From positions 38,924 through 102,923 of the forward strand of contig CAWGPP010000013.1 of assembly GCA_963824545.1 (NCBI GenBank): DNA of 64,000 nucleotides, written 5' to 3'. This stretch comes from an uncultured Actinomycetes bacterium (GTDB taxonomy: Bacteria; Actinomycetota; Actinomycetes; Streptosporangiales; Streptosporangiaceae). The notes beneath the pieces are model-generated. The model ran no database searches, was not told the DNA's origin, and saw nothing but the letters and a program-made list of their open reading frames with translations. How positions within the stretch are numbered: the stretch's first letter is position 1; each line of letters opens with the position of its first letter. Shown here one piece after another: positions 14,023 to 64,000 of this stretch. Both the position numbers and the translations under genes were made by a program.

Positions 14023-14144
14023 TCAGCCGTGCCATGCCGAACGGGCCGGGTGGCCCTCAGCCGTCCGCGCGGAGTGCTCCCGGCCGCGGGAAACGCGGAG
14101 ACCCCACCCTGGCGATCAGGATGGGGTCTCCGGCGCTCAGGCGG

Positions 14145-15818
14145 TCAGTGCTCGAGCCTCGGCTCCGGCGCCTCGCCGGCCTGCCGGTTCACCAGGTCCA
14201 GCATCTCGTTCCTGGGCAGCTTCACCCGCATCGCCCAGTAGTAGATGAGCAGGCTGAACCCGGCGACGGCCAGTATGTCCCACCAGAATGGGATGTTGAA
14301 GGTGTTGGTGGGCGCCTGCGGGTGCTTGTCGCTTGACGCCGCGCCGCTGTACTGGCCCTGCCAGGAGAGGATGCCCAGGCCGATCAGCCACGCCGGCAGC
14401 CACACCGCGGACTTCCAGTCCAGCGGCGGCCGCTGCGGGTCGAACGCCATGAACGCGCCCATGATCACGTACCCGAGCACCAGGACGATGCCGAGCTTCC
14501 AGACCACCTCGAAGCCCGACCAGTAGATGAGCAGGTCGGCGAAGATGAACGCGGCCGGGCCGAGCACGGCGGCGGCCGGCATCCGGTATGGCCGGGATGC
14601 CTCGGGAACCTGGCCGCGGAACGCGCCCAGGGACAGCGGGGCCCCGGCGTACATCAGTACGCTCGCACCGGTGATCAGGCCGACCAGCGAGTGCCAGCTG
14701 GGGAACGGCAGCAGGAAGAGCAGTCCGATCAGGAACGCGAAGATCAGCCCGACCCACGGGATGCCGTTCCGGTCCACCTTGCCGAAGATCTGCGGGTAGT
14801 ACCGGTTCCTGGCCAGGCTGTAGCTGACCCGCGACGTTCCGGTCGTGTAGATCAGGCCGGTGCCGGACGGCGAGACGAAGGCGTCAATCCGCAGGATCCA
14901 CGCCAGCCATCCGAGCGCGACCAGGCCCGCGAGACCGGCGAACGGCCCGGACAGGATGGCCGTGTTGGTGATGCCCGGGAAGCCCTTGCCCAGCAGGTTG
15001 GCGGGCATCGCGCCGATGAACGCGACCTGCAGCAGGATGTAGATCGCGGTGCCGATCAGGATGGCCAGGATGATCGCCCGCGGCAGGTTGCGCCCCGGGT
15101 TCTTGATCTCCCCGGCCAGCTGGTCAGCCTGCTCGAAGCCGGAGTAGGCGAAGATGACACCCGCGGCCGGGAGCGCGCCGAACAGGGCCTTGATCCCGCC
15201 CGGCATGAAGCCTGCTCCCCCGGCGGTGAAGTTGCCGCCGTGGAACTTGAACAGCAGCACGATGATCGCCAGGACCGGGACCGCGACCTTCCACTACGTG
15301 ATGACGTTGTTGACCCGGGCGAAGATGCGCATGGCCAGGAAGTTGACCGCAACGAAGACCGCCATCAGCACGATGGTGAACACGAAGCCGGCCCCAGTGA
15401 CGTTTTTCGTCGTCGTGTCGTAGAGGCCGGGCCAGAAGTAGGAGGCGTACTGCATGAACGCGAAGCACTCGATCGGCGCGATCGTCACCGCCTGCACATA
15501 GGAGAAGAAGCCGAACGAGATGCCTGCCACGCTGCCGAACGCGAAGTGCGGGAACCTGGCCGTTCCGCCGGAGACCGGGTACATCGCGCCGAGCTCGGCG
15601 TGGCAGAGCGCCAGGACGACAACCACGACTCCGGCGATGGCCCAGGCCAGGACGGCGGCTCCGCCCACCGCCTGCGCGGCGTACAGCGCGCCGAACAGCC
15701 ACCCCGAGCCGATGATCGACGTCTCGGACGCCCAAGTGGCCCCGATCAACCCGAGCTCTCGCTTGAGGCCGACGTCAGTCGGCCGGGTTACGGCGACCCC
15801 TGAAGTATCAGTTGCCAT
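14145..15818 (-). pseudogene. APC-family amino acid permease interrupted by an in-frame TAG
   Basis: ORFs 15294..15818 and 14145..15260 are in the same frame. They read ...ARVNNVIT*WKVAVPVLAIIVLLFKF, with the stop TAG at 15294-15296 where TGG (Trp) is expected. Confidence 0.8.
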
Positions 15819-21845: not shown

Positions 21846-24800
21846 TCAGGCCAGGGCCGCCTCGATCAGCTCCTTGTGCGTCGCGGCATGCTGCTTGGCC
21901 GATCCGGTCGCCGGTGCCGAGCTGGCCCGCAGCGATACGAGCTCCAGCCTCCGGCCCAGCAGTTCCGGCAGCCACAGCGCCATCCGCGGCCAGGCGCCCA
22001 TGTTTTCTGGCTCTTCCTGGGCCCACACGAGTTCCTCCGCCTGCGGGTACCGGGCCAGCTCGGCTTTGAGCTCGTTCAGCGGCAGCGGGTAGAGCCGCTC
22101 CACCCGGACGATCGCCGTCGTTGACCCAGCGGCGCGCCGTGCCACCAGGTCCCAGTAGATCTTGCCCGAGCAGAGCACGATCTTGCGCGCCCGCGCCGCG
22201 TCGAACTCGGCCGGCTCGCCGATCAGCGGCTGGAACCAGCCGCTGGTGAAGGCGGAGGCCGGCGACGTCGCCGCCTTCATCCGGAGCATCGACTTGGGCG
22301 TGAACACGATGAGCGGCTTGCGCCGCCCGGACATCCCCTGCCAGCGCAGCAGGTGGAAGTAGCTGGCCGGGGTGGTCGGCATCGCGACGGTCATGTTGTC
22401 CTGCGCGCAGAGGGTGAGGAACCTCTCGACCCGCGCCGAGGAGTGGTCGGGTCCCTGGCCCTCGTACCCGTGCGGCAGCAGCAGGACGACGCCGGAATGC
22501 TGCCCCCATTTCTGCTCGCCCGCGCTGATGAACTCGTCGATGATCGACTGGGCGCCGTTGAAGAAGTCGCCGAACTGGGCCTCCCAGGCCACCAGCGCGT
22601 CCTCCCGGGCCACGGAGTACCCGTACTCGAAGCCCACCGCCGCGAACTCCGACAACAGCGAGTCGTACACGTAGAACTTGCAGCTCCCGTTGTCGAACCG
22701 CTTGAGCGGCGTGTATTCGTTGCCGTTACGCCGGTCGACCACGACCGCGTGCCGCTGCCCGAACGTGCCACGCCGGCTGTCCTGCCCGACGAGCCGGACC
22801 GGATGGCCGTCCAGCAGCAGGCCGCCAAAGGCCAGCAGCTCACCGGTCGCCCAGTCGATGGTGTCCTCGGCGACCATGGCCGCGCGCCGGGCCAGCTGCG
22901 GCTGCAGCCGCGGATGCGGCGTGAAGCCGTCGGGCATGCTGACCTGGGTCTCGATCACCTGCTTGACGGTGTCGATCGTGATGGCCGTGTTGACGGCGGT
23001 GTGGTTGACCGGCCGTTCCTCGGGTTCCGGCCGGACGACCGCGCCCGGCTCGGGCGGCCGCTGCGTCGCCTCGCGCGTCTCGGTGAAGGCCCGTTCGAGC
23101 TGGCGCTGGTAGTCGCGCAGCGCCGCCTCGGCCTCCTCCATCGTGATGTCGCCCCGGCCGATCAGCGACTCGGTGTAGAGCTTCCGGGTGGAGCGCTTGG
23201 CCTCGATGAGGTCGTACATGAGCGGCTGGGTGAACGAGGGGTTGTCCGCCTCGTTGTGGCCGCGCCTGCGGTAGCAGACCATATCGATGACGACGTCCTT
23301 GTGGAAAGCCTGGCGGTACTCGAAGGCGAGCCTGCCGACCCGGACGACCGCCTCCGGGTCGTCCCCGTTCACGTGGAAGATCGGTGCCTGGATCATCCGG
23401 GCCACGTCGGTGGGGTACACGGTGGACCGGCCGGACTGCGGCCCGGTGGTGAAGCCGAGCTGGTTGTTGACCACGATGTGCACGGTGCCGCCGGTTCGGT
23501 AACCGCGCAGCTGGGACAGGTTCAGGGTCTCCGCGACCACCCCCTGCCCGGCGAACGCGGCGTCGCCGTGCATCAGCACGGGCAGCACCGTGAAGCCGCC
23601 GGAGCCGCCCTTGTCCAGGACGTCCTGCTTGGCCCGGACCACGCCCTCGAGCACCGGGTCGACGGCTTCCAGATGGCTGGGGTTGGCTACCAGCGTGGTG
23701 GTGATCTGCGAGCCGTCCGGGCTCTTGAACACCCCGTCCGCGCCGAGGTGGTACTTCACGTCGCCGGATCCCTGCGTGCTGCCGGGGTCCATGTTGCCCT
23801 CGAACTCGTTAAATATCTGCCCGTAGGACTTGCCCACGATATTGGCTAGCACGTTCAGCCGGCCGCGGTGCGCCATGCCCAGGACCGCCTCGTCCAGGCC
23901 CTCCTCCGCGGCTTCCGTGATCACCGCGTCCAGCAGCGGAATCAGCGACTCCGCGCCCTCGAGCGAGAACCGGCGCTGCCCGACGAACTTCGTCTGCAGG
24001 AACATCTCGAACGCCTCGGCGACGTTCAGGCGGGACAGGATGCGGATCTGCTCGTCATGTCCGGGCCGTTCGTGCGGCCGCTCGATCCGCGCCTGGATCC
24101 AGGCGCGCTCGTCCGGCTCCTGGATGTGCATGTACTCGACGCCGACCGTACGGCAGTAGGAGTCGCGCAGCACGCCGAGGATCTTGCGCAGCTTCATCAG
24201 CGGGCGGCCGCCGAAACCGCCGGTGGCGAATTCGCGCTCCAGGTCCCACAACGTCAGCCCGTGCTGGTTGATGTCCAGGTCGGGGTGCTTGCGCAGGGGG
24301 AACTCCAGCGGGTTGGTGTCGGCCATCAGGTGGCCGCGCACCCGGTAGGCGTGGATGAGTTCCTGCACCCGGGCGGCCTTGGTGATGTCGTCCTCGTGCC
24401 CGGCGGAGATGTCCTTGACCCAGCGGACCGGTTCGTACGGGATCTGAAGCGCGGTGAAGATGTCGTCGTAGAAGCCGTCCTCGCCCAGCAGCAGCTGGTG
24501 AATCCGGTTAAGGAACTCCCCGGACTGGGCACCCTGGATGATCCGGTGGTCGTACGTCGAGGTCAGCGTCACCTGGCGGCTGATGGCCAGCCGGGCCAGG
24601 GTCTCTTCCGCGGCGCCCTGGTAGGCGGCCGGGTATTCCATCGCCCCCACTCCCACGATGCAGCCCTGCCCCGGCATCAGCCGCGGGATGGAGTGGACGG
24701 TCCCGATCGTGCCCGGGTTGGTCAGGCTGATGGTCGTTCCCGCGAAATCCTCGACCGCCAGCTTGCCGATGCGCGCCTTGCGCACGACGTCCTCGTAGGC

Positions 24801-52802: not shown

Positions 52803-52946
52803 CCGTCCCTCAGTGAACGTACATCTTTTTTGTGAGCAGTGCTCTTGACAGATTGCGCAGTAACGGTGTTAGCTGCTCTTGAGACAGAGCAGTGCTCTCG
52901 AACCGGGCCGGGCCCAGCCGGGAGCACGGAACCAAGGAGGCCCACC

Positions 52947-53405
52947 ATGACCGAGACGCCGCAGCACTACCAGGAGGCGGGCTGGTTCACCCGCAATGTG
53001 TTCAACAAGGCCGTCGCCGGCCTGACCGGGCTGGGCATCCCCATCATGGGGTCGCGCATCCTGGCCGTCCGGGGCCGTAAGAGCGGCGAGTGGCGCACCA
53101 CGCCGGTCAATCTCCTGATCATCGACGGCCATCGCTACCTGGTCGCACCGCGCGGCCACACGCAGTGGGTCCGCAACCTGAGGGTCTCCGGCCAGGGTGA
53201 GCTGCGCCTCGGGCGGCGGGTGGAGCCGTTCACCGCCGAGGAGGTCTCCGACGACGCCAAGCCCGCGATCTTGCGCGCCTACCTGCGCCGGTGGAAGGCC
53301 GAGGTCGGCGTGTTCTTCGGTGGCGTTGGCCCGGACTCCCCGGAGACCGAGCTGCGCCGGATTTCTCCCGACCACCCGGTCTTCAAGATCAGCGGCGCGG
53401 CCTGA
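52947..53405 (+). CDS. deazaflavin (F420H2)-dependent nitroreductase family protein (DDN-like)
   Basis: ATG 52947 follows AAGGAGG. RKSGEWRTTPVNLL..DGHRYLVAPRGHTQWVRNL. Confidence 0.8.
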   Translation: MTETPQHYQEAGWFTRNVFNKAVAGLTGLGIPIMGSRILAVRGRKSGEWRTTPVNLLIIDGHRYLVAPRGHTQWVRNLRVSGQGELRLGRRVEPFTAEEVSDDAKPAILRAYLRRWKAEVGVFFGGVGPDSPETELRRISPDHPVFKISGAA

Positions 53406-53588
53406 AGGCAGTCGGCTCGCAGGGCCGCCGCGGCTCCTGGCCTCTGCCGTCCGGCCGCTTCGCCAGCAGGCCGGCGCGTGGTCAGCGGCGGGATCGCGGC
53501 GAACTTCCCCTCGGGCTTTTGCGCTTCGGCTGGGCTGGCTCTGCGCGTCCGCCCGGGGCGCCTGATGCCGCGGGCGGACGCGCACCGG

Positions 53589-53750
53589 GTTATTGGCTTG
53601 AGCGATGGGATACGTGGCCGGCCGCGGCTTGGTGGTGCCGCGCGGGAGGGGAAGGGCGGGACCGCGCCCAGGGACTGGCAGCCATCACGAACGATGCGAT
53701 CAGGGTCAAGGCCGCACTTGTTGCGCGTGCTGTTGCCGGTGTACTGGTCA
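53589..53750 (-). CDS. candidate 53-aa secreted mini-protein downstream of RHH paralog 1
   Basis: Not in the ORF track. GAGGAGG lies 8 nt before the ATG. MTSTPATARATSAALTLIASFVMAASPWA is signal-peptide-like, followed by the His/Pro-rich RSRPSPPARHHQAAAGHVSHRSSQ. Confidence 0.35.
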
Positions 53751-53802
53751 TCTCCGTTGCCTCCTCGTGGCCGGCGCTCTCGCGGCTCTGGCTAGCCGTG
53801 TG

Positions 53803-54186
53803 TCAGAGCAGTTTGAGCAGGTTGGCATGGCCGTCCTGGCGGACGATGATTTCTGCCCCGGCGTTGAGCACAGCGTCGATGTACTCGTAGAGGGACAGTG
53901 CCCTGTTGACGATGTCGGTCCTGGATAGGTCGGTTCTGTCGTGGGTGCGCTGAAGGTCTGCTGCCGCCTTGTCAATGAGCGGAACAGTTATCTGGTCCGC
54001 TACGGGGGCCAGTTCCCGTAGCGGACCAGAGCTGCCGGTGCTATGTGGCGCTTCCCCGGCCTGCTCGGGTGCGCAATCGGCCGTGGCTGATGGTGGGTCT
54101 GCAGCTGGGCCGGATGCCGCCCCTGCGGTATCCGGCGGCGCTGCCGCCACGAGACGCGGCGTGGCGCCGTGTGTACGACCACCCAT
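53803..54186 (-). CDS. ribbon-helix-helix-like small DNA-binding protein, island paralog 1
   Basis: ATG 54186 follows GGGAGG. C-terminal 60 aa (ITVPLIDKAAADLQRTHDRTDLSRTDIVNRALSLYEYIDAVLNAGAEIIVRQDGHANLLKLL) align with 55347..55610 and 63052..63288. Confidence 0.7.
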   Translation of the reverse strand: MGGRTHGATPRLVAAAPPDTAGAASGPAADPPSATADCAPEQAGEAPHSTGSSGPLRELAPVADQITVPLIDKAAADLQRTHDRTDLSRTDIVNRALSLYEYIDAVLNAGAEIIVRQDGHANLLKLL

Positions 54187-54366
54187 GGTTGTCCCTACCT
54201 CCCTGATGTTGACGGACAGGATCGTCTCCCGCACTACGGAGATGCACTATACAGTCAATGTGCAGCATAAATGTAGAGCCCCGTGTGGTAAATAGATGTA
54301 GTTCAGCTGTCTCTGATACAGCTATACTGACGAAATGTGTCGGCTGCTGCCTGACAGGAGGTGCCC

Positions 54367-54612
54367 ATGGAGCCGCCAGAAAGCCTCCCCGCCGGTGCCG
54401 GACTGCCCAACCAGGGTGGCGAGAAGCCTGCTGCGGACCGGCCGGCCGAGCCTGTGCTGGCACTGCAGGCGCCGACGGCAGCGGCTGAACTCGTCCTCAT
54501 ATTGCTTCCGCCTGACCATGAAGTCATCGCTCGGGACCGCTGGCCCGCACGGCTGCTCCGGCATGGCCTCCACGCGGCCTGGCGGGGGATCGGCGGTGGC
54601 CCCAGGGGGTAA
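54367..54612 (+). CDS. 81-aa motif protein A (PTAAAELVLILLP)
   Basis: CAGGAGG lies 5 nt before the ATG, with a TATACT -10 box at 54323. Divergent from RHH paralog 1. Motif at 54472..54510. Confidence 0.55.
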   Translation: MEPPESLPAGAGLPNQGGEKPAADRPAEPVLALQAPTAAAELVLILLPPDHEVIARDRWPARLLRHGLHAAWRGIGGGPRG

Positions 54613-54857
54613 GGGGATACTGTCGCACCAGTTCGGGCGGTCGCGAAGCACTCGCTGCATATGTTCGGCTTGTTCGTTCTTTCCGGCACTGCCAACGTCT
54701 TGTATCTACCGGGAGTAGCTATCCGGCCGCGAACTATGATAGCTAATTGTTCACTCTGACTCTGCTGTACAAAGCTAATATTCGATGTTAGGTTCGACTT
54801 CAGTCCAGTCGATGTCGCAACTTGGTCCGCACCTTGAGGCTGAGAAGGGGAGGGAAC

Positions 54858-54989
54858 ATGGGAAAGGTGGCGCAAAGCCTGGCAGGCTTCTCTGACGACG
54901 ACGATTACGGGCCATCTGGGGATACTGAGCAGCCCTCCCCGATGGCTGAGCTGGCCATAAGGCTGGAGCGCGTAGAACCCGGCCAGTGA
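54858..54989 (+). CDS. 43-aa acidic motif protein E (PSPMAELAIRLERVEP)
   Basis: Not in the ORF track. GAAGGGGAGGG precedes the ATG. MGKVAQSLAGFSDDDDYGPSGDTEQPSPMAELAIRLERVEPGQ. Confidence 0.45.
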   Translation: MGKVAQSLAGFSDDDDYGPSGDTEQPSPMAELAIRLERVEPGQ

Positions 54990-55141
54990 CTGAGGCCGGG
55001 GCTGCCCCGGCTTGTGCAGGCTGGCGTCTGGGGTAAGGGGTCTGCTGCCCAGTCATCCGATCCGCAGGCCAGGGCGGGCATCTCGGTGTGCGCTTCGCAT
55101 GGCATATCGCAGCTGACGAGACCCAAAACGGCCAATCTAGC

Positions 55142-55194
55142 ATATGGTTCCCAGAACCATATATTGACTGGCCCCCAGGTGACGCATGTATGCT
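55142..55194 (+). promoter_or_regulatory. 21-bp palindrome abutting a TTGACT / TATGCT promoter upstream of RHH paralog 2
   Basis: atatggttc-cca-gaaccatat (55142..55162), then TTGACT (55164..55169) and TATGCT (55189..55194). Confidence 0.45.
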
Positions 55195-55346
55195 AACAGT
55201 ACACGCAACGAGACAGGGCTGGCCTGCAATACAGGTGGGCCCTGTCTGCAACAGCTACAGCTTCACCTGACAACAGGTGTGCGCTGGTGATGCGGCGAGA
55301 GGGCCCTTGATGCGGATACCTGCTTGCCCTGAGAGGAGGAACCGCG

Positions 55347-55610
55347 ATGGCTACCAACGCGGGCAGTAGGGCGGAGAAGGACGATGGCACCCGGGCGCAG
55401 GGGGCGATAGACCGGATCACCGTTGCTCTGATCCGGAGGGCGGCAGAAGATCTCCAGGCCCTCCAGGACAGGACTGGCTATTCCAAGACGGACATTGTGA
55501 ACCGTGCGATCACGATGTACGAGTTCATCGACGCCCAGCAGAAGGCGGGGAAGGATCTGCTGGTGCGTGACCCGAAGACCGAGAAGACCGAGCTCGTCCG
55601 GTTCTTGTAG
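55347..55610 (+). CDS. ribbon-helix-helix-like small DNA-binding protein, island paralog 2
   Basis: 87 aa. GAGAGGAGG precedes the ATG. ITVALIRRAAEDLQALQDRTGYSKTDIVNRAITMYEFIDAQQKAGKDLLVRDPKTEKTELVRFL. Confidence 0.75.
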   Translation: MATNAGSRAEKDDGTRAQGAIDRITVALIRRAAEDLQALQDRTGYSKTDIVNRAITMYEFIDAQQKAGKDLLVRDPKTEKTELVRFL

Positions 55611-55750
55611 ACCGCGGCTGCTGGGCCGACAGGAACGGTCCCGGCCTGGTACGGCATTGTCAGTGCGGGCATGCAGGCCGTGGGAGGGTATCCAGGATCT
55701 GCCGTCACGCATGCGTATGGATGCCCTCCTGCCCTATAGCTCGATAACTG

Positions 55751-55788
55751 GCACCCACCTGGGCTTAGCCTGGATGTGGTGCTTTTTT
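55751..55788 (+). terminator. hairpin plus T6 tract downstream of RHH paralog 2
   Basis: gcacccac ... gtggtgc followed by tttttt. A T-run is rare in this high-GC DNA. Confidence 0.4.
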
Positions 55789-55816
55789 GCTGCTGGGTGC
55801 TCTCTGCTCCCAGGGA

Positions 55817-56128
55817 CTACTCGGGCATCCTCCCTTCTGCCTGGCCTGACTGATCCGGGGTCCGGGCCTGACTGGAGAGGGCAATCAGCGCTGCCCCCAC
55901 AAACGCGAGCCCAAGCTCGGCCATGGCCAGGACGGTAAGGCTGGAACTGGCACGCAACGTGAGAACCGCGCCAGCGATTCCCATCGTGACGCACGTCAGA
56001 ATCCCGAACGCACCGATGAAATGACTGGTTTCGGCGAACGGAACGGTTCCTTCTGCAGTTACCCGTGTGGGCTGGACCTCGATCTTGAGCTGGGCGGCTG
56101 GGGTAGGCCGCTCAGCGGGGTCGGTCAT
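55817..56128 (-). CDS. 103-aa 2-TM membrane protein F with N-terminal motif (PTPAAQLKIEVQP)
   Basis: AAGGAGG lies 8 nt before ATG 56128. Two hydrophobic helices (FIGAFGILTCVTMGIAGAVL, LAMAELGLAFVGAALIAL). Confidence 0.65.
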   Translation of the reverse strand: MTDPAERPTPAAQLKIEVQPTRVTAEGTVPFAETSHFIGAFGILTCVTMGIAGAVLTLRASSSLTVLAMAELGLAFVGAALIALSSQARTPDQSGQAEGRMPE

Positions 56129-56304
56129 TAAGGGGTGCCTCCTTGAGAGTCGGTAAAGGGGGCCCGGCGCGTGCATCTAGGTCGTAGAGACCGGGTGGAT
56201 GGCCGCCTGCAGCCATGCCGTGGTATGGCCTGGACTGCTCGTCGCCTGAGGGCATCGGTGACGAGCCCTCTGGAACGGCCTTAAGCAGCTGTTGACTGCT
56301 TCAA

Positions 56305-56334
56305 AAGCTAGTTTAATACATGTATAAGCTGCAA
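56305..56334 (-). promoter_or_regulatory. sigma70-like promoter for membrane protein F (TTGCAG-18-TAGCTT)
   Basis: Read on the minus strand in an AT-rich stretch that also contains the palindrome tacatgta. Confidence 0.35.
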
Positions 56335-56706
56335 TCTAGCCGTACGCAGCCGTGATGTACGGCCGACCAGGCAAGCGGGAGCGCGCGGCCGCCGACCAGG
56401 CGGCCTCGGGCCGCTGATGGCGAGTCCCAGAGTCGGGCAGCCCGGCCACGGCGCCTGCCGCACCCTTGATCTTCCTCTGTCTCACTGGCATGCCTTCGTG
56501 TGCCGGGACAACCTGCTCAGCGTCGTTCTGCCCCTTGAACAGGCCAGTTGGCCACCACTCAGATGTCCGCGCAGCGGGGGGCCTGATGGCACGCCGTACG
56601 GGGACGGCGGCCGCAAGCAGAAAGCAAGGAACCGTCACCATCCGGCGCCGGACCAGTCAGCACGCCCCGGGCGTATATCTGCTGTAAAAATTATGCTGAT
56701 TAGATG

Positions 56707-56735
56707 TTGTACTTGCTGAAGGGTGATGCTAGATT
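56707..56735 (+). promoter_or_regulatory. sigma70-like promoter TTGTAC-17-TAGATT (module copy 1)
   Basis: Preceded by ctgtaaaaa and tagatgttg. Homologous to the module at 63775..63830. Confidence 0.45.
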
Positions 56736-57194
56736 GATGGCAGAACGAAGGGAGGTTGAGCAGTAAGAGCTGTAAAATGAGCAGCTTGCGGCTGCCTCAT
56801 ACGTCACTTTCACCGTGCCCATCACCTGGGGCTACCAAGGAGGTGAACCCCCGCAGGGAAGCCAGGGACGCCGGTTCCGCTCCCACTTCGCCAGGCGGAG
56901 CCGGCGTCCCGCGGCGGCACCTGAACTATCGACCCATTCGTCAGCAGGCAAAGACATCCCGGGCTGGCCTGGCGGCCAGCCCTTCCCGCTAGCAGCAGGC
57001 CGGAAGGCCGGAAAGGAGAACGTCAATGACCACGATCTCTATTTATGAGCGCCATGGGCTGCCTGGTACGCCGGCCATGCCGGCTAGCCGCAGCAGCCCT
57101 GGGTGTCGCTACCGGGGCGCCCGGGCCCACGGAAGGGCGCGGGACCTCCCTGGTACTGGGATCTGGGCCGGGCTGCCCGAAAGGAGGAATCGTC

Positions 57195-57449
57195 ATGATC
57201 ACGCTGTACCTGATCATCGCGGTGGCGCTGGTCGCTGCCGGCGCCGTCGCGGGCTTCATGGTGGTGGTCTCGTGGGGAATTCATCGTGAGGAAGCCCGCT
57301 ACAGCATGACGATTCACCCGCCGGGCCGGGTCGCGGCCGGGGTGCGGGTCGCGAACGGCATGCACGCCCGCTTCCCGGGAGTCATCCAGGAAGCCCGGTA
57401 TTACCGCCAGGATTTCCGCCCTCCCGGTCCGGGGGCGACGATCCGGTGA
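57195..57449 (+). CDS. 84-aa single-TM small protein
   Basis: AAGGAGG lies 7 nt before the ATG. MITLYLIIAVALVAAGAVAGFMVVVSW... An in-frame upstream ATG at 57045 would give 134 aa. Confidence 0.6.
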   Translation: MITLYLIIAVALVAAGAVAGFMVVVSWGIHREEARYSMTIHPPGRVAAGVRVANGMHARFPGVIQEARYYRQDFRPPGPGATIR

Positions 57450-57593
57450 TCGTGGCTTGTGCCTGCGGAGGCCAGCAGCTGGCCGGGGCGTCTAAGGCCT
57501 CGGCCAGCTGCCCTGACGGCGTCGCGGGATAACAAAGTGGACAGCGTCCACTAAATGCCGGGGGGCTCGCGATGAGCAGGAACAGGACTGGGG

Positions 57594-58034
57594 ATGCGGC
57601 GGGCCCAGCGCTCACCGCGCGTGTTCGACGCGTCGGCAACGCAGGCGCGCCGGTGGTGGAACCTCGCCGCGATCGCCCGCGACCTGGACGGCACGGTCGC
57701 CCTCTACGCCGACCGCAGCGACGAGGACCCGAATACAGTCAGCACATCGGTGCAGTCCTCCTCGACGGCCTACGCTGCGGAGCTACGCGGCGGCCTCCCA
57801 CGCGCTGACTTCGGCAACGCCGCTCCTCGGCGAGGCGTGAGTGCACCCAAATGCGGGAGCGGACCCGCACGGACAGCCGCCTCACCGTCAGCACCGACGT
57901 GCAGGGTGCGCCAGTGCGGGCTGCCGCATCACGACCATCGTAGGGCGGGGTTGCTCTGGGTGGTCAAAGTAGCGCATATCGTGACAGCCCGGGGAGCTCC
58001 TGGACGGGCATGCCGATCCCCTCGCCGGCGCTGA
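57594..58034 (+). CDS. hypothetical protein with degenerate motif copy (STAYAAELRGGLP); possibly decayed
   Basis: Good GC3 only in the first ~80 codons. Motif-like segment at 57762..57800. The 3' part looks non-coding. Confidence 0.3.
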   Translation: MRRAQRSPRVFDASATQARRWWNLAAIARDLDGTVALYADRSDEDPNTVSTSVQSSSTAYAAELRGGLPRADFGNAAPRRGVSAPKCGSGPARTAASPSAPTCRVRQCGLPHHDHRRAGLLWVVKVAHIVTARGAPGRACRSPRRR

Positions 58035-58111
58035 TGGAGCACATCGGGACCCGGTTCCGTAGGGCGGTGGCGTCTTACCCGTCATCCAACGGGATCCGTG
58101 GGTGAGGTCCG

Positions 58112-58323
58112 GTGACCTGCTACCTGGACCTCGGCCGCCCGGAGAACGTCGAGATCATCTTCGGCCGGCCCCTGCACCCCCCGGCCAGATGGCCTACGAC
58201 CTGCGCAGGCTTCGCCTCGCCAGCCTCATCAGGCGCATCGAGGCACCCGACGGCATTCTTCTGGCCGCTCGGGGTTTCCTGGACGCTCCCCTGAAGGGTA
58301 TGATGACGCTTGTCGACGTTTGA
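58112..58323 (+). pseudogene. frameshifted, internally deleted remnant of a multi-copy actinobacterial hypothetical-protein family
   Basis: The two frames read YLDLGRPENVEIIFGR and QMAYDLRRLRLASLIRRIEAPDG. From memory, these strings lie over 100 aa apart in intact family members. Confidence 0.4.
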
Positions 58324-58468
58324 AGACATACGTAGACGGGCTAGAAATGGCGATCAGCGGCGAAGCCCAGCGCGCGAGACAACTGCATGAAGGGAAGGGT
58401 CATGACCGGACACTGCGTGAGTCCCGGCGTCACCAGCAAACCGGGAAACGGATTGTCACGGAAAGTAA

Positions 58469-58485
58469 CCTTAAGGACCTTAAGG
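58469..58485. promoter_or_regulatory. two tandem palindromic octamers CCTTAAGG-A-CCTTAAGG
   Basis: Located 23 nt upstream of ATG 58508. Confidence 0.4.
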
Positions 58486-58507
58486 AAGAGAAAGAGAAGC
58501 AGGCCCA

Positions 58508-58891
58508 ATGAACATCTCCGATCCAGCCGTCCCCTCCGGCCGGGATGACGAGGAACCTACCTCTGCCGCGGAACTTGTGATCCTCCCGGCCCGCATTTTC
58601 GGCCGTTTGAAAGGCAGCCGGAACCGCGAGACGGGAAGGCGCCCGCCGCGCTGGCCGCGAGTGCGCCTGCACTCAGCGGCGCCGCAGGCCCGCGTTAAGA
58701 ACTCCGCTTCCGCCGTACCCGCGCAGGCAGATCCGCCCGCCGCGGAGGCGCCCACAACTGCCGCGGAGCTCACGGTGATCCTCCTGCCTTATTCTTTTGC
58801 CCGCAGGCCCTGCCAGGCTGGGCCGAAGAACGGAAGAGCAGGACAAAGCCCGCGCCGATGGACGCGGCCGCCCGGCTCCGGTCCGCCGTGA
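58508..58891 (+). CDS. 127-aa basic protein carrying two motif copies (PTSAAELVILP, PTTAAELTVILLP)
   Basis: Purine-rich GAGAAAGAGAAG precedes the ATG. Motifs at 58556..58588 and 58751..58789. Upstream of the tandem-Phd gene. Confidence 0.55.
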   Translation: MNISDPAVPSGRDDEEPTSAAELVILPARIFGRLKGSRNRETGRRPPRWPRVRLHSAAPQARVKNSASAVPAQADPPAAEAPTTAAELTVILLPYSFARRPCQAGPKNGRAGQSPRRWTRPPGSGPP

Positions 58892-58961
58892 CCGGCAGGG
58901 CGTTTGGGGGGCAGCACCCGAGAGGCCTAGCCTGGGTGCGTTGCACAGGAAGAGCGTTGCC

Positions 58962-59711
58962 ATGGAAACAATCAGCATCCGCAACCTGCGAGGGAAGGCA
59001 CTTCGCGAGAAAGCAGCGAGCGGCAAGCCGCTAGCGATAACTAACCACCGTGCCCTGATCGGTGTCCTCATTCCCGTCGCGGCGGCCTGGGTCGAGCAGC
59101 TCATTGACTACAACTGGTCACACGTCCGGCAGAGCATCGCGGAAGGCGACCGGGCGCTCGCGGAAGGCCAGCCGATGATCAGGCTGGAGGACGTGTTTCC
59201 CGCCGTCGGCGATTCTGCCCCCGGCCCGGGGCCCGTACCTGATATGCCGGAAACAATGGCGGCGCCGCTCTTCGCGGCACTGACCGGTGAGGCGCTTGCC
59301 CAGTCTGCTGGGGGCCAGGAGGTTCTCGAGCAGCTGCGATCGGCGCTAGCTCCTCCCCGGCCACACGGAGCCGAGGGAGATAGCCCGACGTCCGTGCGTA
59401 CCGTGCGGATCGGTGACCTCTCCGCTGGTCTGATCGAAAAGGCGGGTCAGGCGGGACAGACGCTGGCGATTACGCATGAGCGGGAGCTAATCGGGATCAT
59501 GATCCCTGTCACCCAGGGGCTGGTGGAATTCCTCATCGAGCAGAACGTTTCCCGCGCCCTAGCCAACATCACCCGCGGTGAAATGCAGCTCCGGGTCACC
59601 GGCAAGCTGACCAGTCTCGATGAGGTACTTGATCCGCCGGAGAAGAATCCAGGCTCGCCCTCCCCGCCAGCGGCCGCTTCCAGGGATGACTGCGCCGCGG
59701 CCCAACCTTGA
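58962..59711 (+). CDS. single-chain tandem Phd/YefM-like antitoxin-fold protein
   Basis: Two internal repeats: METISIRNLRGKALREKAASGKPLAITNHRALIGVLIPV..WVEQLIDYNWSHVRQSIAEGD and VRTVRIGDLSAGLIEKAGQAGQTLAITHERELIGIMIPV..LVEFLIEQNVSRALANITRGE. Confidence 0.6.
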   Translation: METISIRNLRGKALREKAASGKPLAITNHRALIGVLIPVAAAWVEQLIDYNWSHVRQSIAEGDRALAEGQPMIRLEDVFPAVGDSAPGPGPVPDMPETMAAPLFAALTGEALAQSAGGQEVLEQLRSALAPPRPHGAEGDSPTSVRTVRIGDLSAGLIEKAGQAGQTLAITHERELIGIMIPVTQGLVEFLIEQNVSRALANITRGEMQLRVTGKLTSLDEVLDPPEKNPGSPSPPAAASRDDCAAAQP

Positions 59712-59799
59712 TAAGGTGGCCTGGCGTTTCCCGCAGCAGCGAGATTGTGAAGGTTCCGGCATCCCGGCGGAAGCCCCCTCCGGGGAACGCTGACCCGGG

Positions 59800-60225
59800 T
59801 TACGGCAGGCGCGGCGGCACAGAACGGGTGAACGCCGCCGTGGCCGACAAGATGTCGAAGACATAGACGCCCTTGTCGGCAGCATACCCATGCTCGTGCC
59901 GCCACCACTTAAGCTCATGGCTGTCCATAGGGCGGTGAACCGCCGTATAGCCTCCATGGCTGAGTGGAGTGGCGGTGTAGATCACGCCGTCCGGCGCCGC
60001 CTCGGCAGAGCGGCCCCGCCAAGCCCGCATATCGGAGTCATACCGGACTTCCATATGGGCATTCGGGCCTGCTATGAGTTCGTGCCGCAACGCTTCGCCG
60101 AGTTGACGCCGGCGTTCCCCCGTCAGGCGCAAGATCGCCACGAGCGCCGCCGGCCCCAGCGCCACTTCGTAGGCATGCGTTAACCCAGCATGCGTCATCA
60201 ATCCGCCCCCCAAGATCTTTAACAT
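59800..60225 (-). CDS. hypothetical 141-aa protein, weakly RelE/ParE-like in pattern
   Basis: AAGGTGGGG precedes ATG 60225. Convergent with the tandem-Phd gene and downstream of membrane protein D. No firm motif. Confidence 0.4.
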   Translation of the reverse strand: MLKILGGGLMTHAGLTHAYEVALGPAALVAILRLTGERRRQLGEALRHELIAGPNAHMEVRYDSDMRAWRGRSAEAAPDGVIYTATPLSHGGYTAVHRPMDSHELKWWRHEHGYAADKGVYVFDILSATAAFTRSVPPRLP

Positions 60226-60461
60226 CCTGCCCCACCTTATGAGCAGAAAGAATAAAGCCTGAGACAAGCTCACGACAATGATGTGAGAAAATCGGCAATC
60301 AAGCCAAAGGTGACAATAACTGATAAATCATCTCATTTCATTAACTCATGCTGACCCGCTTGCAGCACCGACGGTGACGTGCCCGCTGGCCGGCTGATGC
60401 AGACCAAGGGCACATCTTCCAGCGTCGCGGGGTCGCGGGCGGCCGCCGCCGCGTCGGCGGC

Positions 60462-60899
60462 TTACTTCGCCCGGTGAAGCGCACGGACAATGGCAAAGAC
60501 GCCGGCCGGTAGCAACAGGCCCCCGATGGTCACCCACGCCGGTGCGCCGACGGCCGCGGCGGTGCCCGCGATGAAACAGCCGGAAATAGTAAGCAGGACA
60601 GCGGCGATGGCCGTGGCCAGCGAAGATCCGCCGAATGTCTCTGTGCCCAGCTTTATAGACATTCCGCCGAGCCAGCCCGGGGCCTTGAACTCGAAGTTGC
60701 ACCGCTCGGGCAGAAGGACCACATGGAGTTCGGCCTTGGCGCTGGGCTGTTCGTCCCCGGCCGGCCTCTGCGGGGGGTGCGGGCTGGGTACGGCGGGGGG
60801 CCTGGCCACGGCTAGCTCTTCCGCGGACAGGTCAGCGGCCCGTGCAGGAGCACTGGCCGGCGTATGTACATGGAACCTCCTGTTGAGACGGTGTGCCAT
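60462..60899 (-). CDS. 145-aa 2-TM membrane protein D with motif copies (PSAKAELHVVLLP and degenerate SAEELAVARPP)
   Basis: Motif at 60708..60746, then ~25 aa and two hydrophobic helices (LATAIAAVLLTISGCFIAG, WVTIGGLLLPAGVFAIV). Same architecture as 55817..56128. Confidence 0.6.
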   Translation of the reverse strand: MAHRLNRRFHVHTPASAPARAADLSAEELAVARPPAVPSPHPPQRPAGDEQPSAKAELHVVLLPERCNFEFKAPGWLGGMSIKLGTETFGGSSLATAIAAVLLTISGCFIAGTAAAVGAPAWVTIGGLLLPAGVFAIVRALHRAK

Positions 60900-61048
60900 G
60901 GATACGCATAGAATATCTGTAAACTAGCTGGAAGACAAGCAGTGATTAACTGCGTTCACCGTCCTAACCCGATGAACGGGCGCCGAGCGGCCCCTCTGCG
61001 GAGCTCTGCACGGTGCAAAGGCCTGTGTCGGCTGCCGCTGCCGATTAT

Positions 61049-62506
61049 TTATCCGGCGGCGGCGGGAGCGGCGGCAGCGGCGCGTCGAGAACTGGGCCCG
61101 CAGCTGTCGAGCCGCAGTGCGTGCTCGATGAAGCTCTCCAGTACGCACACGGCGACGGCCTCAGCTCCCAGCAGTGCGGCATCCTGTGGGTTCGCCGGGA
61201 ATGGACGGACCCTGAGGTAATCGGGATCGCTGCTTCCCGCGAACGCCCGGGTGACCTCTGTTCTGACCGCGGCGAGGTAAGCGGCGGCAGCGGTATCGGG
61301 CTTCGGTTCAGCGAGGGCGGCAGGCAGGTAAGTGATGATCCTGTTGGGATTGACGGTGTTACTGACATGGGCCAGGGCGCGGCCAAGAGCAGCGCCGCTA
61401 CGCGCGAAGATCTCCTGTGCTCGCTGGAACTCCGGGCTGAGCGAATCGATCTCGCTTATCTGCTCCAGGGTGCCGCCGAGTTCCTCCTCGATTCGGCGCG
61501 GAGGCGCAAACGTGTCGACATGCCCGAACTGACCGCAGGGGCAGCGCGCCTTGAATCCACTGCCCATAGGGTCCTGAGATTCGGGCTCCTGGCCCGGGGC
61601 GAAGCCGACGGCGAGATGGCCTATTTCCATGGCCCGGCCATTGCCCCCCCGGCGCAGCCGGCCGTCCATGACCAGGCCGCCGCCGACTCCCTCATCAAAG
61701 ACACCGACCACTACGAGATCCGGCTCGGTGTAGTGGATCTGCTGGGTGGCCAGCACCGCCAAGGCGTTGACGTCGTTCTCAACTATCACGGGGATGGGCC
61801 GCTCGAAGCACGGGTCAGCCTCGAAGAGGTGGTGCAGCTTCTCTGCCAGCGAGACGGGACGCACGGACCGGTCGTTCGACTGCGGCATGACCTGGCCGTT
61901 ATAAGCGGGTGCCGCAACTTCCACACCCATCCCGAACAGCCGCAATGGTTCCAGCCCGCGGTCTGCTCTGTCCTTGTCACACGCGTTCTTGAGCAACGTC
62001 ACGTGCCGGTGTGCGAGTTCAGCTACCTGGTCCCAGCTGTCAGCCGGGTCGTGGGCTTTGCCGAGCACTCGCGAGCTGTCCAGCCCGAACAACGCTGTTG
62101 TTACGTGCGTAGGCCGTTCTTTGGCCTGCATCACCTTTACCCCTGCGGTCGCATACAGGCTCCCCAGGCGAAGCGGTGAGAGGGTCCGGCCATCGGAGTT
62201 GCGCAGGAGCTTCTCGCCGTCTTCAAGCAGGCCCTCGTCGATCAGTGCCTTTACTGCCTTGCTGACCGTGCCTTGGGGAATAGCGCGCTGGTCGACGACG
62301 CGGCGGGCCGCGGGGTTACCGGCCGAGATCTGCACCCGGGATGTCTCCTCCGGCGCCCGCAAGGATGTGCGCGCCAGCACCTCGCCCAGGACCTCCTGGC
62401 CAATGCCCGAGTGCCTGACGAGTTTGTCCAGCAGATGCTGAAACTGGTCGTGCTGCATAGCCAGACCACCCTGCTCCCGCGGCCCATGAACGATCTCTGT
62501 AGGCAT
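61049..62506 (-). CDS. ROK family transcriptional regulator
   Basis: 485 aa with N-terminal wHTH (VSKAVKALIDEGLLEDG), a ROK sugar-kinase fold (DEGVGGGLVMDGRLRRG) and zinc motif CPCGQFGHVD. Confidence 0.8.
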   Translation of the reverse strand: MPTEIVHGPREQGGLAMQHDQFQHLLDKLVRHSGIGQEVLGEVLARTSLRAPEETSRVQISAGNPAARRVVDQRAIPQGTVSKAVKALIDEGLLEDGEKLLRNSDGRTLSPLRLGSLYATAGVKVMQAKERPTHVTTALFGLDSSRVLGKAHDPADSWDQVAELAHRHVTLLKNACDKDRADRGLEPLRLFGMGVEVAAPAYNGQVMPQSNDRSVRPVSLAEKLHHLFEADPCFERPIPVIVENDVNALAVLATQQIHYTEPDLVVVGVFDEGVGGGLVMDGRLRRGGNGRAMEIGHLAVGFAPGQEPESQDPMGSGFKARCPCGQFGHVDTFAPPRRIEEELGGTLEQISEIDSLSPEFQRAQEIFARSGAALGRALAHVSNTVNPNRIITYLPAALAEPKPDTAAAAYLAAVRTEVTRAFAGSSDPDYLRVRPFPANPQDAALLGAEAVAVCVLESFIEHALRLDSCGPSSRRAAAAAPAAAG

Positions 62507-62576
62507 ATTATTCCCAACTGAGATAATGGGAAAACGAGGCTTGCAAAAAGATCTTTAGCTTTTTCCGGCATCCGAC

Positions 62577-62605
62577 TTGCAGTGAGAATGTCATGTGAGT
62601 AGGTT
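62577..62605 (+). promoter_or_regulatory. sigma70-like promoter TTGCAG-17-TAGGTT upstream of motif protein G
   Basis: Exact 17-nt spacer. Divergent from the ROK gene. Confidence 0.4.
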
Positions 62606-62658
62606 CATATTACCCTGCTCGACCGCGCGGGGCGAACAAACAGAGGGGAGCGGCGACG

Positions 62659-62838
62659 GTGAAGTGCTCACAGGAGGGAACGACCGCCACCCGGCGAGCA
62701 CGGGCCGGCTGCCCTACGCGGGCCGTGCACGCCAGGGGAGGCGACTCATCCAGGCAAGAACGACCGGGCGGCGAGGAGCCAACGTTGTCCGCGGAGATGA
62801 CGATCAGGGTCGTGCCCATCCCGGACGAGGACGCATAG
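62659..62838 (+). CDS. 59-aa motif protein G (EEPTLSAEMTIRVVPIP, C-terminal)
   Basis: Not in the ORF track (59 aa). GTG start lies 9 nt after GAGGGGAG. Ends ...QERPGGEEPTLSAEMTIRVVPIPDEDA. The listed minus ORF 62610..62939 is its antisense. Confidence 0.45.
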   Translation: MKCSQEGTTATRRARAGCPTRAVHARGGDSSRQERPGGEEPTLSAEMTIRVVPIPDEDA

Positions 62839-63051
62839 GCACCAGCCCCCCGCGGCCAGCCAGCGGCAGCTGCCCACAGCAGTGATAGGGCATCAAGGGC
62901 GGCCCAGCAGGGACGCCGTCCCCAGAGTCTCGAAGGCATCTCAGCGGCGCCGCCGAACGGCTTGCCTCGCTGCGTGCACAGAAAGGGGCCTTCCCCGCGG
63001 CACCAAAGCGGCAGGGATTTCCCTCTGGCGTCTGATCCCCCGTGAAGCCAG

Positions 63052-63288
63052 CTACAGGATTACGACGGCCTGGGTCTCTCCTGTCGCCTTGTCCCGGATG
63101 AGCACCTCCCGGCCGGCGCTGATCTGGGTGTCGATGAAGTCATACAAGGTGATCGCGCGATTCGCGAGATCTGTCTTGGACAAGTTGGTCCTGTTCTGAA
63201 GGCGCTGGAGTTCCTCCGCGACCTTTGGTACCAGGGCAACCGTGATTCGCTCAACAACCGGTGTGTGGTTGTCCGCGGTGGCGGCCAT
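63052..63288 (-). CDS. ribbon-helix-helix-like small DNA-binding protein, island paralog 3
   Basis: ATG 63288 follows GGAAGGAG. 78 aa: ITVALVPKVAEELQRLQNRTNLSKTDLANRAITLYDFIDTQISAGREVLIRDKATGETQAVVIL. Confidence 0.75.
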   Translation of the reverse strand: MAATADNHTPVVERITVALVPKVAEELQRLQNRTNLSKTDLANRAITLYDFIDTQISAGREVLIRDKATGETQAVVIL

Positions 63289-63440
63289 CGTGAATCTCCT
63301 TCCAAGGACCCCAGAGCACGCCCTGGGCCCCCGCTTGGCCAGTATCAGACCATCGAGCGGTCCGGTGCGGAGGCTTGTTGTGGATCCGGCTACCGAATGT
63401 TGCATGAAGTAGCGGCCGATGTTGTGCATCGAAGCTGCTT

Positions 63441-63463
63441 CGTTGCTATCCACGATAGCAACG
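63441..63463. promoter_or_regulatory. 23-bp perfect palindrome upstream of RHH paralog 3
   Basis: cgttgctatc-cac-gatagcaacg (10-bp arms, 3-nt spacer). On the minus strand it overlaps a TGTACA-16-TATCGT promoter candidate. Confidence 0.5.
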
Positions 63464-63801
63464 CCTGTGCGGTTGTACAGACCGTCGACAGAAAATTACT
63501 GTAAAAATACTCCATTCCCCTGACCAACTTCGCAGCTTATCTCTGCCAGAGGCTCCACTGAACAGGACCTTCCTCCTTGCCTCTCCAGGCCGGAAGGCAT
63601 CCTGGCGGCTGTGCCGTCATATGGCCCCCTTCGGCCGGCTGAGCCATCGCCGTAGCCTGGCGACCCGTGGTTAACCCGCCGCGCGATGCTCTCGCCGCTT
63701 TGCGTGCTCGCGGGGGCAGGCAGCAGGCGGCTCGGACCGCAAGCTGCCCAGGGGCAGAGCCGTTAGCATGTCTTCTCTGTAAAAAAACTGCACTCTAGAT
63801 G

Positions 63802-63830
63802 TTGCTAGACTGCTTTCAGCGCTGTATATT
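63802..63830 (+). promoter_or_regulatory. sigma70-like promoter TTGCTA-17-TATATT (module copy 2)
   Basis: Preceded by ctgtaaaaaaactgcactctagatgttg, matching the 56680..56735 module. Confidence 0.5.
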
Positions 63831-63943
63831 CATGTCAATGCCTCACAGAAAAACTGGTTGAGGGGAGGAGGGAAGGCAGTCACAAGCTGCTAGCGAGTAT
63901 GCCAGGTACAGCCGGGGCGACGACCCCCAAGGAGGTGAACAGC

Positions 63944-64000
63944 ATGACCGCCAGCCTGGCCAGGAACGTTGCGTGGCCACAGGCAGCGGGCGGCCGTATC
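63944..64000 (+). CDS. 5' end of an unknown gene running off the window
   Basis: CCAAGGAGGTGAAC lies 3 nt before the ATG (the AAGGAGG core 7 nt before it). MTASLARNVAWPQAAGGRI... The same CCAAGGAGGTGAAC string occurs at 56834..56847. Confidence 0.45.
   Translation, partial: MTASLARNVAWPQAAGGRI

Follow-up and report, generated by a model that had tools for sequence, protein, structure and literature searches.

A decayed accessory island flanked by att-like repeats in an uncultured Streptosporangiaceae bacterium, and its probable descent from an integrative element

Does the low-G+C DNA at the end of an otherwise G+C-rich stretch of actinomycete chromosome represent an acquired element, and if so, an element of which kind? 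The question is raised by 64,000 nucleotides (the window) of contig CAWGPP010000013.1 (positions 38,924 to 102,923, forward strand; GenBank assembly GCA_963824545.1) from an uncultured member of the Streptosporangiaceae. Its last 10.4 kb, which follow a DDN-family gene, had been marked in an initial annotation, made from the letters alone, as a compositionally distinct accessory island with decayed genes. The segment is acquired, variably present and bounded by att-like repeats, and it carries no mobility gene. With a probability of roughly 0.7, we read it as a horizontally acquired, non-autonomous island of 13.1 kb, a decayed, att-flanked remnant of an actinomycete integrative element, comparable to the cis-mobilizable elements (CIMEs).

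An acquired segment between the DDN-family and aquaporin genes

Composition changes just past the DDN-family gene, from 72.3% G+C over positions 1-53588 to 64.1% over 53589-64000; the single best maximum-likelihood change point is at 53680, and 500-nt windows of the core and island parts differ at a Mann-Whitney p of 2.6e-11. Third-position G+C (GC3) is 0.887 +/- 0.039 in 38 long core open reading frames (ORFs; minimum 0.81) versus a mean of 0.745 in 12 island genes (range 0.68-0.84). Called genes cover 51% of 53590-64000, and the intergenic DNA of the island is 62.7% G+C. The shift that had been judged by eye, the use of A/T-ending codons and the wide spacing of genes are thus all confirmed, with G+C and codon usage both strongly different from those of the flanks. 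Only the assertion that A/T runs never occur in the preceding 53 kb has to be softened, being nearly right: there is one A/T stretch of at least 8 nt in the first 53.6 kb, versus five in the last 10.4 kb.

The island's right end lies beyond the window and is reached through two metagenome contigs from other samples (L001 and L002), which encode the window's ROK-family regulator and the third of its ribbon-helix-helix (RHH)-like proteins. Both are 99.9% identical to the window across 11-13 kb and both pass its right end; appending the reverse complement of L002 gives extended coordinates, the same as window numbering up to 64000. In these coordinates the island occupies 53515-66631 (13,117 bp, of which 53515-64000 is in the window), between the DDN-family gene and an aquaporin (MIP) gene. 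Past 64000 come the fourth RHH-like gene (RHH4, 63944-64192, plus strand), a 46-aa membrane protein and a 620-aa protein (p620; 64632-66494, minus strand), and from the aquaporin gene onward G+C is back at 71-75%. Because the island junctions recur in three independent assemblies from different samples (window, L001 and L002), an assembly artefact is ruled out. Gaps between these near-identical assemblies amount to 3-5 openings per 11-13 kb, and the frameshifts among them may be assembly or sequencing errors, not to be counted as decay.

The DDN protein, scanned against metagenome contigs of JGI, retrieves an empty version of the site. Contig L051 has the gene order of the window, SppA (97% aa identity), p214 (94%), p80 (100%), a metallophosphoesterase (93%) and DDN (87%), and its aquaporin gene (95%) stands 260 nt after DDN with no island between; in the SppA region the nucleotide identity is 97-99%. 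Since the nucleotide alignment stops at window position 53514 and restarts at extended position 66632, the island is delimited as 53515-66631. One 46-nt stretch of L051 (5552-5597) aligns with both island ends, which carry 46-bp direct repeat copies at 53469-53514 (attL-like) and 66632-66677, with the core pattern GGT.AGC.GCGGGATCG.GGCGA.CTTC.CCTCGG. The copies are identical at 37 of 46 positions, versus 24.4 +/- 1.3 (maximum 29) in 200 shuffles of the junction regions (z ~9). The initial annotation had reported no flanking direct repeat. One exists, and it is invisible within the window because its right copy lies outside, 2.6 kb past the window end; following the island rightward to its end brings up this repeat and no integrase. 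The empty-site copy in L051 has 3 differences from the right copy and 9 from the left, which fits an attR that is mostly chromosomal and an attL that is mostly element-derived.

Other relatives widen the comparison. DDN also adjoins the aquaporin gene, with no island, in the more distant relatives L053 and L056, and in L052 and L054 the place holds an intact convergent 257-aa gene of the 5-formyl-tetrahydrofolate (5-formyl-THF) cyclo-ligase family (TIGR02727, E = 3e-7) whose 3' end is the repeat sequence. Only the last codons of this gene persist in L051 and in the window, where the minus strand of the left repeat copy resembles its 3' end. As these alignments read, the insertion fell in what remains of the 3' end of a 5-formyl-THF cyclo-ligase-like gene. 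An inverted repeat at 53542-53584, a short way inside the left end, would form a G+C-rich hairpin with 18-nt arms; the relative's island described below has a hairpin at the matching position, but of different sequence.

The same island, in another version, occupies a different locus in a relative. The closest homolog of the second RHH-like protein (RHH2; 92% aa identity) is encoded on contigs L005 and L006, extended by L131, and the island there is collinear with window 53573-60301 at 80-84% nucleotide identity and resumes, at 67%, at the island end that carries p620. It is flanked on one side by ABM, DUF1707, HpcH, SnoaL and ABC-transporter genes and on the other by MerR/GyrI-like, SnoaL and amidohydrolase genes, none of which is in the window. 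To judge from these alignments, which show it at two places, the island has changed locus one or more times within this lineage. No convincing terminal repeats are seen in the relative's island (18 nt, E = 0.019). The region is therefore not syntenic in all relatives, some having an empty site and one an ortholog elsewhere. As a separate observation, a unit of ~87 bp (CTACCCGAAAATAGGTGCCGATGATGCTGATGGTGCTAACGAGGCATTTATACGCC...) is tandemly duplicated in the merged L005 and L131 contigs at about 23244-23415, exactly where G+C rises at the right end.

Two features of the surroundings may be recorded here. The DDN gene and the next 100 nt (52900-53514) are 87-92% and 56% identical to L051 at the nucleotide level, and genes 1-3 kb farther out 97-99%, suggesting a recombination tract that includes flank; on the right side of the island, identity to L051 is low for ~200 nt. 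Insertions of 3.8 kb (2835-6605 in L055) and 5.7 kb (1949-7614 in L057) stand between the metallophosphoesterase and DDN genes of two relatives of the window's left flank, where the window itself has ~150 nt. Their content has no similarity to island proteins, and the neighbourhood looks like an insertion hotspot.

The RHH-like family at the ends of other elements

The island encodes four RHH-like paralogs. RHH1 (53803-54186, minus strand; recognized by paralog alignment, 80% aa identity to its ortholog in L005) is the terminal gene and is transcribed outward to the left junction. RHH2 (55347-55610, plus strand; 87 aa) is the reference member of the family, supported by homologs and by its codon-position pattern. 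RHH3 (63052-63288, minus strand; 78 aa) comes from paralog alignment, and RHH4, cut by the window end, from gene calls; its start and a promoter-like site, TTGCTA-17-TATATT, lie within 63802-64000 (plus strand). The common core of the four reads 'RITVAL ... LQ ... SKTDIVNRAI ... Y.FID ... LLVRD..TGE'. All 125 detected homologs of RHH2 are unnamed and none has a Pfam domain. Mismatches between RHH2 and its counterpart in the relative fall 3/5/14 by codon position, a pattern that indicates purifying selection. The assignment to the RHH fold is suggested by a predicted strand-helix-helix core of the right length and by weak matches, none of them significant, to Pfam RHH_1 (E = 0.055), PSK_trans_fac (E = 0.029), a designed RHH protein (PDB profile, E = 0.0097) and CopG (E = 0.2). 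The predicted core ('RITVAL ... SKTDIVNRAI') would be of the kind found in the CopG/Arc/MetJ repressors and RHH antitoxins, unlike which the island proteins have a conserved C-terminal extension of ~25 residues ('LLVRD..TGE...V.FL') and no adjacent toxin gene.

Upstream of RHH2, at 55164-55346 (plus strand), alignment and RNA folding delimit a promoter (TTGACT ... TATGCT) and a structured leader of ~150 nt, which are nearly 100% identical between window and relative, compared with 92% for the coding sequence. The leader, which folds at -65.9 kcal/mol (z = -2.9) and includes the strong hairpin GACAGGGCUGGCCUG...CAGGUGGGCCCUGUC, may act as a regulatory RNA in cis or as a site to which a protein binds. 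A palindrome upstream of the promoter was set aside, not being conserved in the relative. A search for a shared operator motif upstream of 64 RHH genes returned only the ribosome-binding site (RBS; AGGAGGTGA).

What connects this family with a known type of element is its position in other genomes. A scan of one genome per species finds it at 42 genome loci, nearly all of them in metagenome-assembled genomes (MAGs) of Streptosporangiaceae or in cultured Streptosporangium, Sphaerisporangium and Actinomadura, and at almost all 42 the RHH genes stand in local low-G+C patches. Sphaerisporangium sp. B11E5 (L041) has Prim-Pol, DUF3987, a tyrosine integrase, the RHH gene and tRNA-Tyr, with the tRNA's 3' end facing the RHH gene; Streptosporangium sp. 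G11 (L037) has RepSA (E = 8e-163), an integrase and the RHH gene; and in S. carneum (L035) there is no integrase, and 35-nt repeats of the tRNA-Thr 3' end enclose a low-G+C stretch whose last gene is the RHH gene. At 4 of ~33 loci (L011, L034, L035 and L041) the RHH gene is faced, from 160-310 nt upstream, by a tRNA's 3' end or by a copy of such an end, and two more loci have a tRNA 390-610 nt from the RHH gene in the opposite geometry. On this gene-order evidence, the RHH family is the att-proximal gene of elements of the type of the integrative and conjugative elements of actinomycetes (AICEs) in cultured Streptosporangiaceae, and RHH1 in the window is likewise the outermost gene, pointing at the junction.

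The company and the reach of the family are as follows. The Pfam families met most often in 80 low-G+C ORFs close to RHH genes are GntR/UTRA (8), XRE/DUF5753 (4), GNAT (4) and integrase (2). RHH2 has no match in 50,697 phage genomes; IMG/VR gives three RHH matches in two contigs, and none for p620; and among plasmids only distant RHH matches occur, on two Streptomyces plasmids. Two of the loci deserve separate mention. In Streptosporangium fragile (L034), an exact 47-nt repeat of the tRNA-Thr(CGT) 3' end (10366-10412 and 14187-14233) surrounds an element of 3.8 kb that encodes a SUKH/SMI1-KNR4 immunity-type protein and adjoins the RHH gene; this looks like tandem accretion at one tRNA. In L017, a MAG contig of otherwise 60-72% G+C closes with a stretch of 36-54% in which ARAGORN calls a tmRNA gene (13797-14231); foreign DNA or a chimeric end may account for it.

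Cargo and decay

Apart from the ROK-family regulator, no submitted island protein has a significant match in Pfam, NCBIfam, PADLOC or PHROGs. The same four collections give no mobility, replication or transfer gene in the island, no P-loop translocase of FtsK/TraB type and no spd gene, in keeping with the initial annotation, which had seen no integrase or transposase. It had seen no tRNA either, and the scan finds none in the window and none in L002; an Rfam scan of 52-64 kb gives nothing above noise. PADLOC recognizes 0 families in the 10 proteins scanned, a set outside which stand RHH1, RHH3 and the small proteins p81, p43 and p46TM.

Two recurrent modules can be made out. One consists of an RHH gene, a small membrane protein and a convergent p620, an order that many further loci show intact. 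At 90% identity the p620 family falls into more than 450 clusters. A representative (P0121, 90% identical to p620) has an AlphaFold model with pLDDT 87.5 and pTM 0.90, a predicted all-alpha ARM/HEAT-like solenoid; Foldseek returns generic importin/ARM/HEAT matches only (TM at most 0.31), and a sequence search of PDB returns nothing. The idea of an N-terminal helix-turn-helix followed by a peptide-binding TPR region (RRNPP-like) was dropped, the only match being TPR_6 at E = 0.1. One homolog, P0224 (JGI sample 3300047160, a contig of 4855 nt), carries an N-terminal TIR_2 domain (E = 2e-20); next to it, convergent and overlapping, comes the 85-aa gene that usually stands there. No other domain fusion is listed for the best 120 of the more than 450 clusters. 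An 84-aa single-pass membrane protein lies inside the window (p84TM, 57195-57449, plus strand), with a 'GIHxxE.AYS' motif and mismatches of 4/2/10 by codon position that point to purifying selection; it is paralogous to the 46-aa protein beside p620.

The other module pairs p249 (58962-59711, plus strand) with the convergent p157 (59800-60198, minus strand; 132 aa from the conserved start), recognized as its partner by co-occurrence: the two are together in L005, L009, L015, L023, L026 and L028. The AlphaFold model of p249 has two tandem beta-alpha-beta-beta-alpha domains and a disordered linker, and mismatches of 16/22/60 by codon position fit purifying selection. Many of its 300 homologs are named 'antitoxin of toxin-antitoxin stability system' by JGI, and the best Foldseek matches of single domains, non-significant, are Phd, YefM and RelB (E at least 0.33, target-normalised TM 0.47-0.66). 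These weak matches suggest a tandem protein of the Phd/YefM antitoxin type, which we call Phd/YefM-like. Like the Phd/YefM type II antitoxins, both modelled domains run in beta-alpha-beta-beta-alpha order; unlike them, p249 is a tandem duplication in one 249-aa chain, and its partner is convergent, not co-transcribed, and matches no toxin family. The p157 family (80 clusters at 50% identity) has no Pfam match in 45 members and no NCBIfam or PDB profile match, and as a RelE/ParE toxin it reaches an hhalign probability of at most 1.7% (RelE1, 1.7%; the RelE1 and ParE queries were approximate).

The ROK-family regulator (61049-62506, minus strand; 485 aa; PF00480, E = 6e-20) aligns with NagC/Mlc models over residues 70-392, with a weak MarR_2 match, and is absent from the relative's island. 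The 103-aa p103 (55817-56128, minus strand), whose sequence reads as ending in two membrane helices, is convergent with RHH2, a pairing that recurs in L005, L009, L010, L026 and L038. The 145-aa p145 (60462-60899, minus strand), without family match, has an 'AKAEL-VVLLP' motif and likewise two C-terminal membrane helices by reading. Coding is doubtful for p81 (54367-54612, plus strand; 81 aa, 'AAEL-V-LLP' motif), which is called in L001 and shows little codon-position bias and 45 nt of gaps against the relative, and for p127 (58508-58891, plus strand; 127 aa, two 'AAEL' motifs), whose mismatches of 13/17/19 show no third-position bias. Neither these two nor p43 nor a 53-aa left-end ORF has a coding-type substitution pattern against the relative; the last (53590-53751), with substitutions of 11/11/10 by codon position, was rejected as a gene. 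A motif A-[AEK]-[EQ]-L-x-[IV]-x-[LV]-[LQE]-P runs through five ORFs (54367-54612, 54858-54989, 55817-56128, 58508-58891 and 60462-60899), in the forms AAELVLILLP, MAELAIRLERV, AAQLKIEVQP, AAELVILP, AAELTVILLP and AKAELHVVLLP. It follows a proline/acidic-rich N-terminus in all five; two of the five run on into membrane helices, and three have no substitution pattern of coding type.

Expression signals in the island are less marked than the initial annotation had made them. A GGAGG-type Shine-Dalgarno sequence precedes 8 of 13 candidate genes and is absent from p127, p249, p157, p145 and the ROK gene, so that its presence on nearly every gene was overstated. The near-consensus promoters noted at 56707, 62577 and 63802 do exist; a consensus scan finds three sites in the island versus 1.7 +/- 1.4 in shuffles of the same region, and 0.29 per kb versus 0.02 per kb in the core (~15-fold). 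This excess over the core is real and is accounted for by base composition; because shuffled island DNA predicts a similar number, promoter richness is no signal of its own.

Decay is borne out, at other places than the one first proposed. The relative's island holds one extra RHH gene (L005 11531-11770) and a 628-aa paralog of p620, both lost in the window. The RHH gene breaks off at 56848/56851, residues 3-17 of the L006 protein being the only part that still matches (56807-56851), and its orphan promoter, leader and RBS remain at 56700-56851 (plus strand). In place of the 628-aa gene stand 745 bp of unrelated, window-specific DNA (57504-58249), which hold most of the frameshifted 'remnant' that had been offered as the example of a decayed gene, at 58112-58323; neither this interval nor the 745-bp segment has a match in Pfam, in NCBIfam, among the PLSDB plasmids or in any of the loci retrieved. 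Because the intact module order is seen in many other loci, the middle module of the window is a degraded copy. Of the two islands, in turn, the window's alone contains p145, the ROK gene, RHH3 and RHH4; different paralogs take their place in the relative.

The cargo consists of modules that recur and are specific to the lineage: an RHH gene leading to a small membrane protein convergent with a 620-aa ARM/HEAT-like protein, p249 convergent with p157, and an added ROK regulator. Its role may, as the likeliest guess, lie in self-regulated maintenance or conflict functions of the element, the small repressors acting on strong promoters with conserved leaders and the membrane and solenoid proteins serving as effectors or sensors. 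The whiJ/abaA-like clusters and conservons of Streptomyces are also lineage-specific small-gene modules, present in many copies per genome and rich in DNA-binding proteins. Unlike those, the island modules belong to unrelated protein families and ride on a variably present insertion.

Origin of the island, alternatives and meaning

CIMEs were defined in Firmicutes (PMC5704250, 2017). The island resembles them in having at its ends direct repeats of which the empty site has one copy, in having no integrase or transfer genes and in its internal decay. It differs in that its repeats share only 80% identity and fall within the 3' end of a relic protein-coding gene, the att function of the copies being putative. 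The modules of AICEs, their att identity segments and AICE remnants were defined by te Poele et al. 2008 (PMC2440964); AICEs include pSAM2, SLP1 and pMEA300, and remnants include Sco3997 and Sare1208 (PMC2440964). With these the island shares an actinomycete host, a size of 10-20 kb, att-like repeats, regulators and small membrane proteins (phd genes occur in some AICEs), as well as its RHH family, which is int- and att-proximal in RepSA- or Prim-Pol-bearing elements of Streptosporangium and Sphaerisporangium. Unlike AICEs, it is without all four defining modules (int/xis, rep, traB-type transfer and a Kor-type regulator), and its target is not a tRNA. We infer descent from an AICE because the RHH signature family, here with four paralogs, sits at the int/att end of AICE-type elements. 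The ancestor would then have lost its integration, replication and transfer modules and kept attL- and attR-like ends, and further movement would need an integrase in trans or homologous recombination through the flanks.

Several observations weigh against this descent. The island shows no trace of an integrase, excisionase, Rep or TraB gene, so the argument for AICE descent comes down to a single gene family and to geometry. The repeat is imperfect and outside any tRNA gene, the ends of the relative's island have no repeat, and the island contains no internal att-like copies, which would be a sign of tandem accretion. At the MAG loci L012 and L017 the neighbouring tRNA is wrongly oriented for 3'-end integration. 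In the cultured genomes with RHH beside an integrase, the p620, p249 and p157 families are not found, so the cargo may be unrelated to AICEs, and the function given to it is a proposal from sequence and models. Finally, the rise in divergence from L051 toward the junction is explained no less well by homologous import of the island with its flank than by site-specific integration.

That last point is the substance of the alternative we take most seriously, though we would still bet against it as the whole account: homologous recombination brought in a larger tract, island and flank together, from a diverged donor that already carried it, and no site-specific recombinase acted in this genome. 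Identity to L051 drops from 97-99% to 87-92% in DDN, the 100 nt that adjoin the left junction stand at 56%, and at the right identity is low for ~200 nt, which favours such a tract; yet import of this kind leaves unexplained how the island came to lie between two copies of a 46-bp sequence, and why it has another locus in L005. Divergence rising toward both junctions does suggest that the island travels with some flank by homologous recombination in the population. Tract import in this sense describes spread, and is compatible with descent from an integrative element rather than replacing it. It is considerably harder to maintain that the island is ancestral here and the empty sites are deletions. 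Direct repeats can mediate precise deletion, and the empty-site copy could be a recombinant, but that copy is nearly the right one (3 differences) and not a left/right hybrid; three relatives at different distances are empty (L051, and L053 and L056 with DDN at 83-88% aa identity), of which L053 and L056 are without the repeat sequence altogether; the more distant L052 and L054 carry the intact cyclo-ligase gene at the place; and the orthologous island sits at another locus in L005. The region is accessory even if this account, improbable as we find it, is true. Vertical inheritance of a native regulatory locus of low G+C, without any transfer, might have been suggested by the many regulators (RHH, ROK, Phd-like) and by the low G+C of RHH loci across genomes, which could reflect constraint on AT-rich regulatory DNA; it is refuted by an empty site with flanks 97-99% identical and by the other location in another relative, and we give it practically no credence.

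Nor does the content argue well for other kinds of mobile or variable DNA. For a prophage or phage-satellite remnant one can cite small repressor-like proteins, low coding density and weak PHROG matches to 'transcriptional repressor' families (E = 5e-4 to 0.05), but there are no structural, terminase, portal or lysis genes, and with RHH2 unmatched in the phage genomes and IMG/VR matches so few, this origin is very improbable. A defence island is a less remote thought, if a doubtful one: the RHH, membrane protein and p620 module, possibly with p249 and p157, would be an anti-phage or abortive-infection system, and low G+C and variability would come from turnover at a defence locus. The region is indeed strain-variable and on a mobile element, with multi-paralog modules that include membrane proteins, a Phd/YefM-like protein is present, and the TIR-bearing p620 homolog (E = 2e-20) has the same gene arrangement. 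Against this, no PADLOC model matches the island proteins scanned, the TIR fusion is a single one in more than 450 p620 clusters, p620 is modelled as a plain ARM/HEAT-like solenoid with no enzymatic domain, and no restriction, nuclease, helicase or NTPase gene is nearby. Descent from an integrative element and a conflict role for its cargo may also be combined, in what is an unlikely, speculative extension: the RHH / single-pass membrane protein / p620 module, often with p249 and p157, would be a new element-borne conflict system (anti-phage/abortive-infection or addiction) of uncultured Streptosporangiales, in which the solenoid might sense an invader or loss of the element, the membrane protein might be the effector, and the RHH protein might double as the att-proximal control gene.

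The island as such is ordinary biology. It makes a clean case in an uncultured soil actinomycete, with the occupied site, the empty site, the att-like repeats and a translocated ortholog all found in metagenome contigs, and it means that integrase-less islands circulate in the Streptosporangiales. Beyond this one locus, it draws attention to a widespread, unannotated RHH-like family that appears tied to the integrase/att end of AICE-type elements. All five module families (RHH, the membrane protein, p620, p249 and p157) are without a Pfam, NCBIfam or PADLOC model. Soil metagenomes are rich in the RHH, p620, p249 and p157 families, and functional work on element maintenance or defence in actinomycetes could reasonably start with them.

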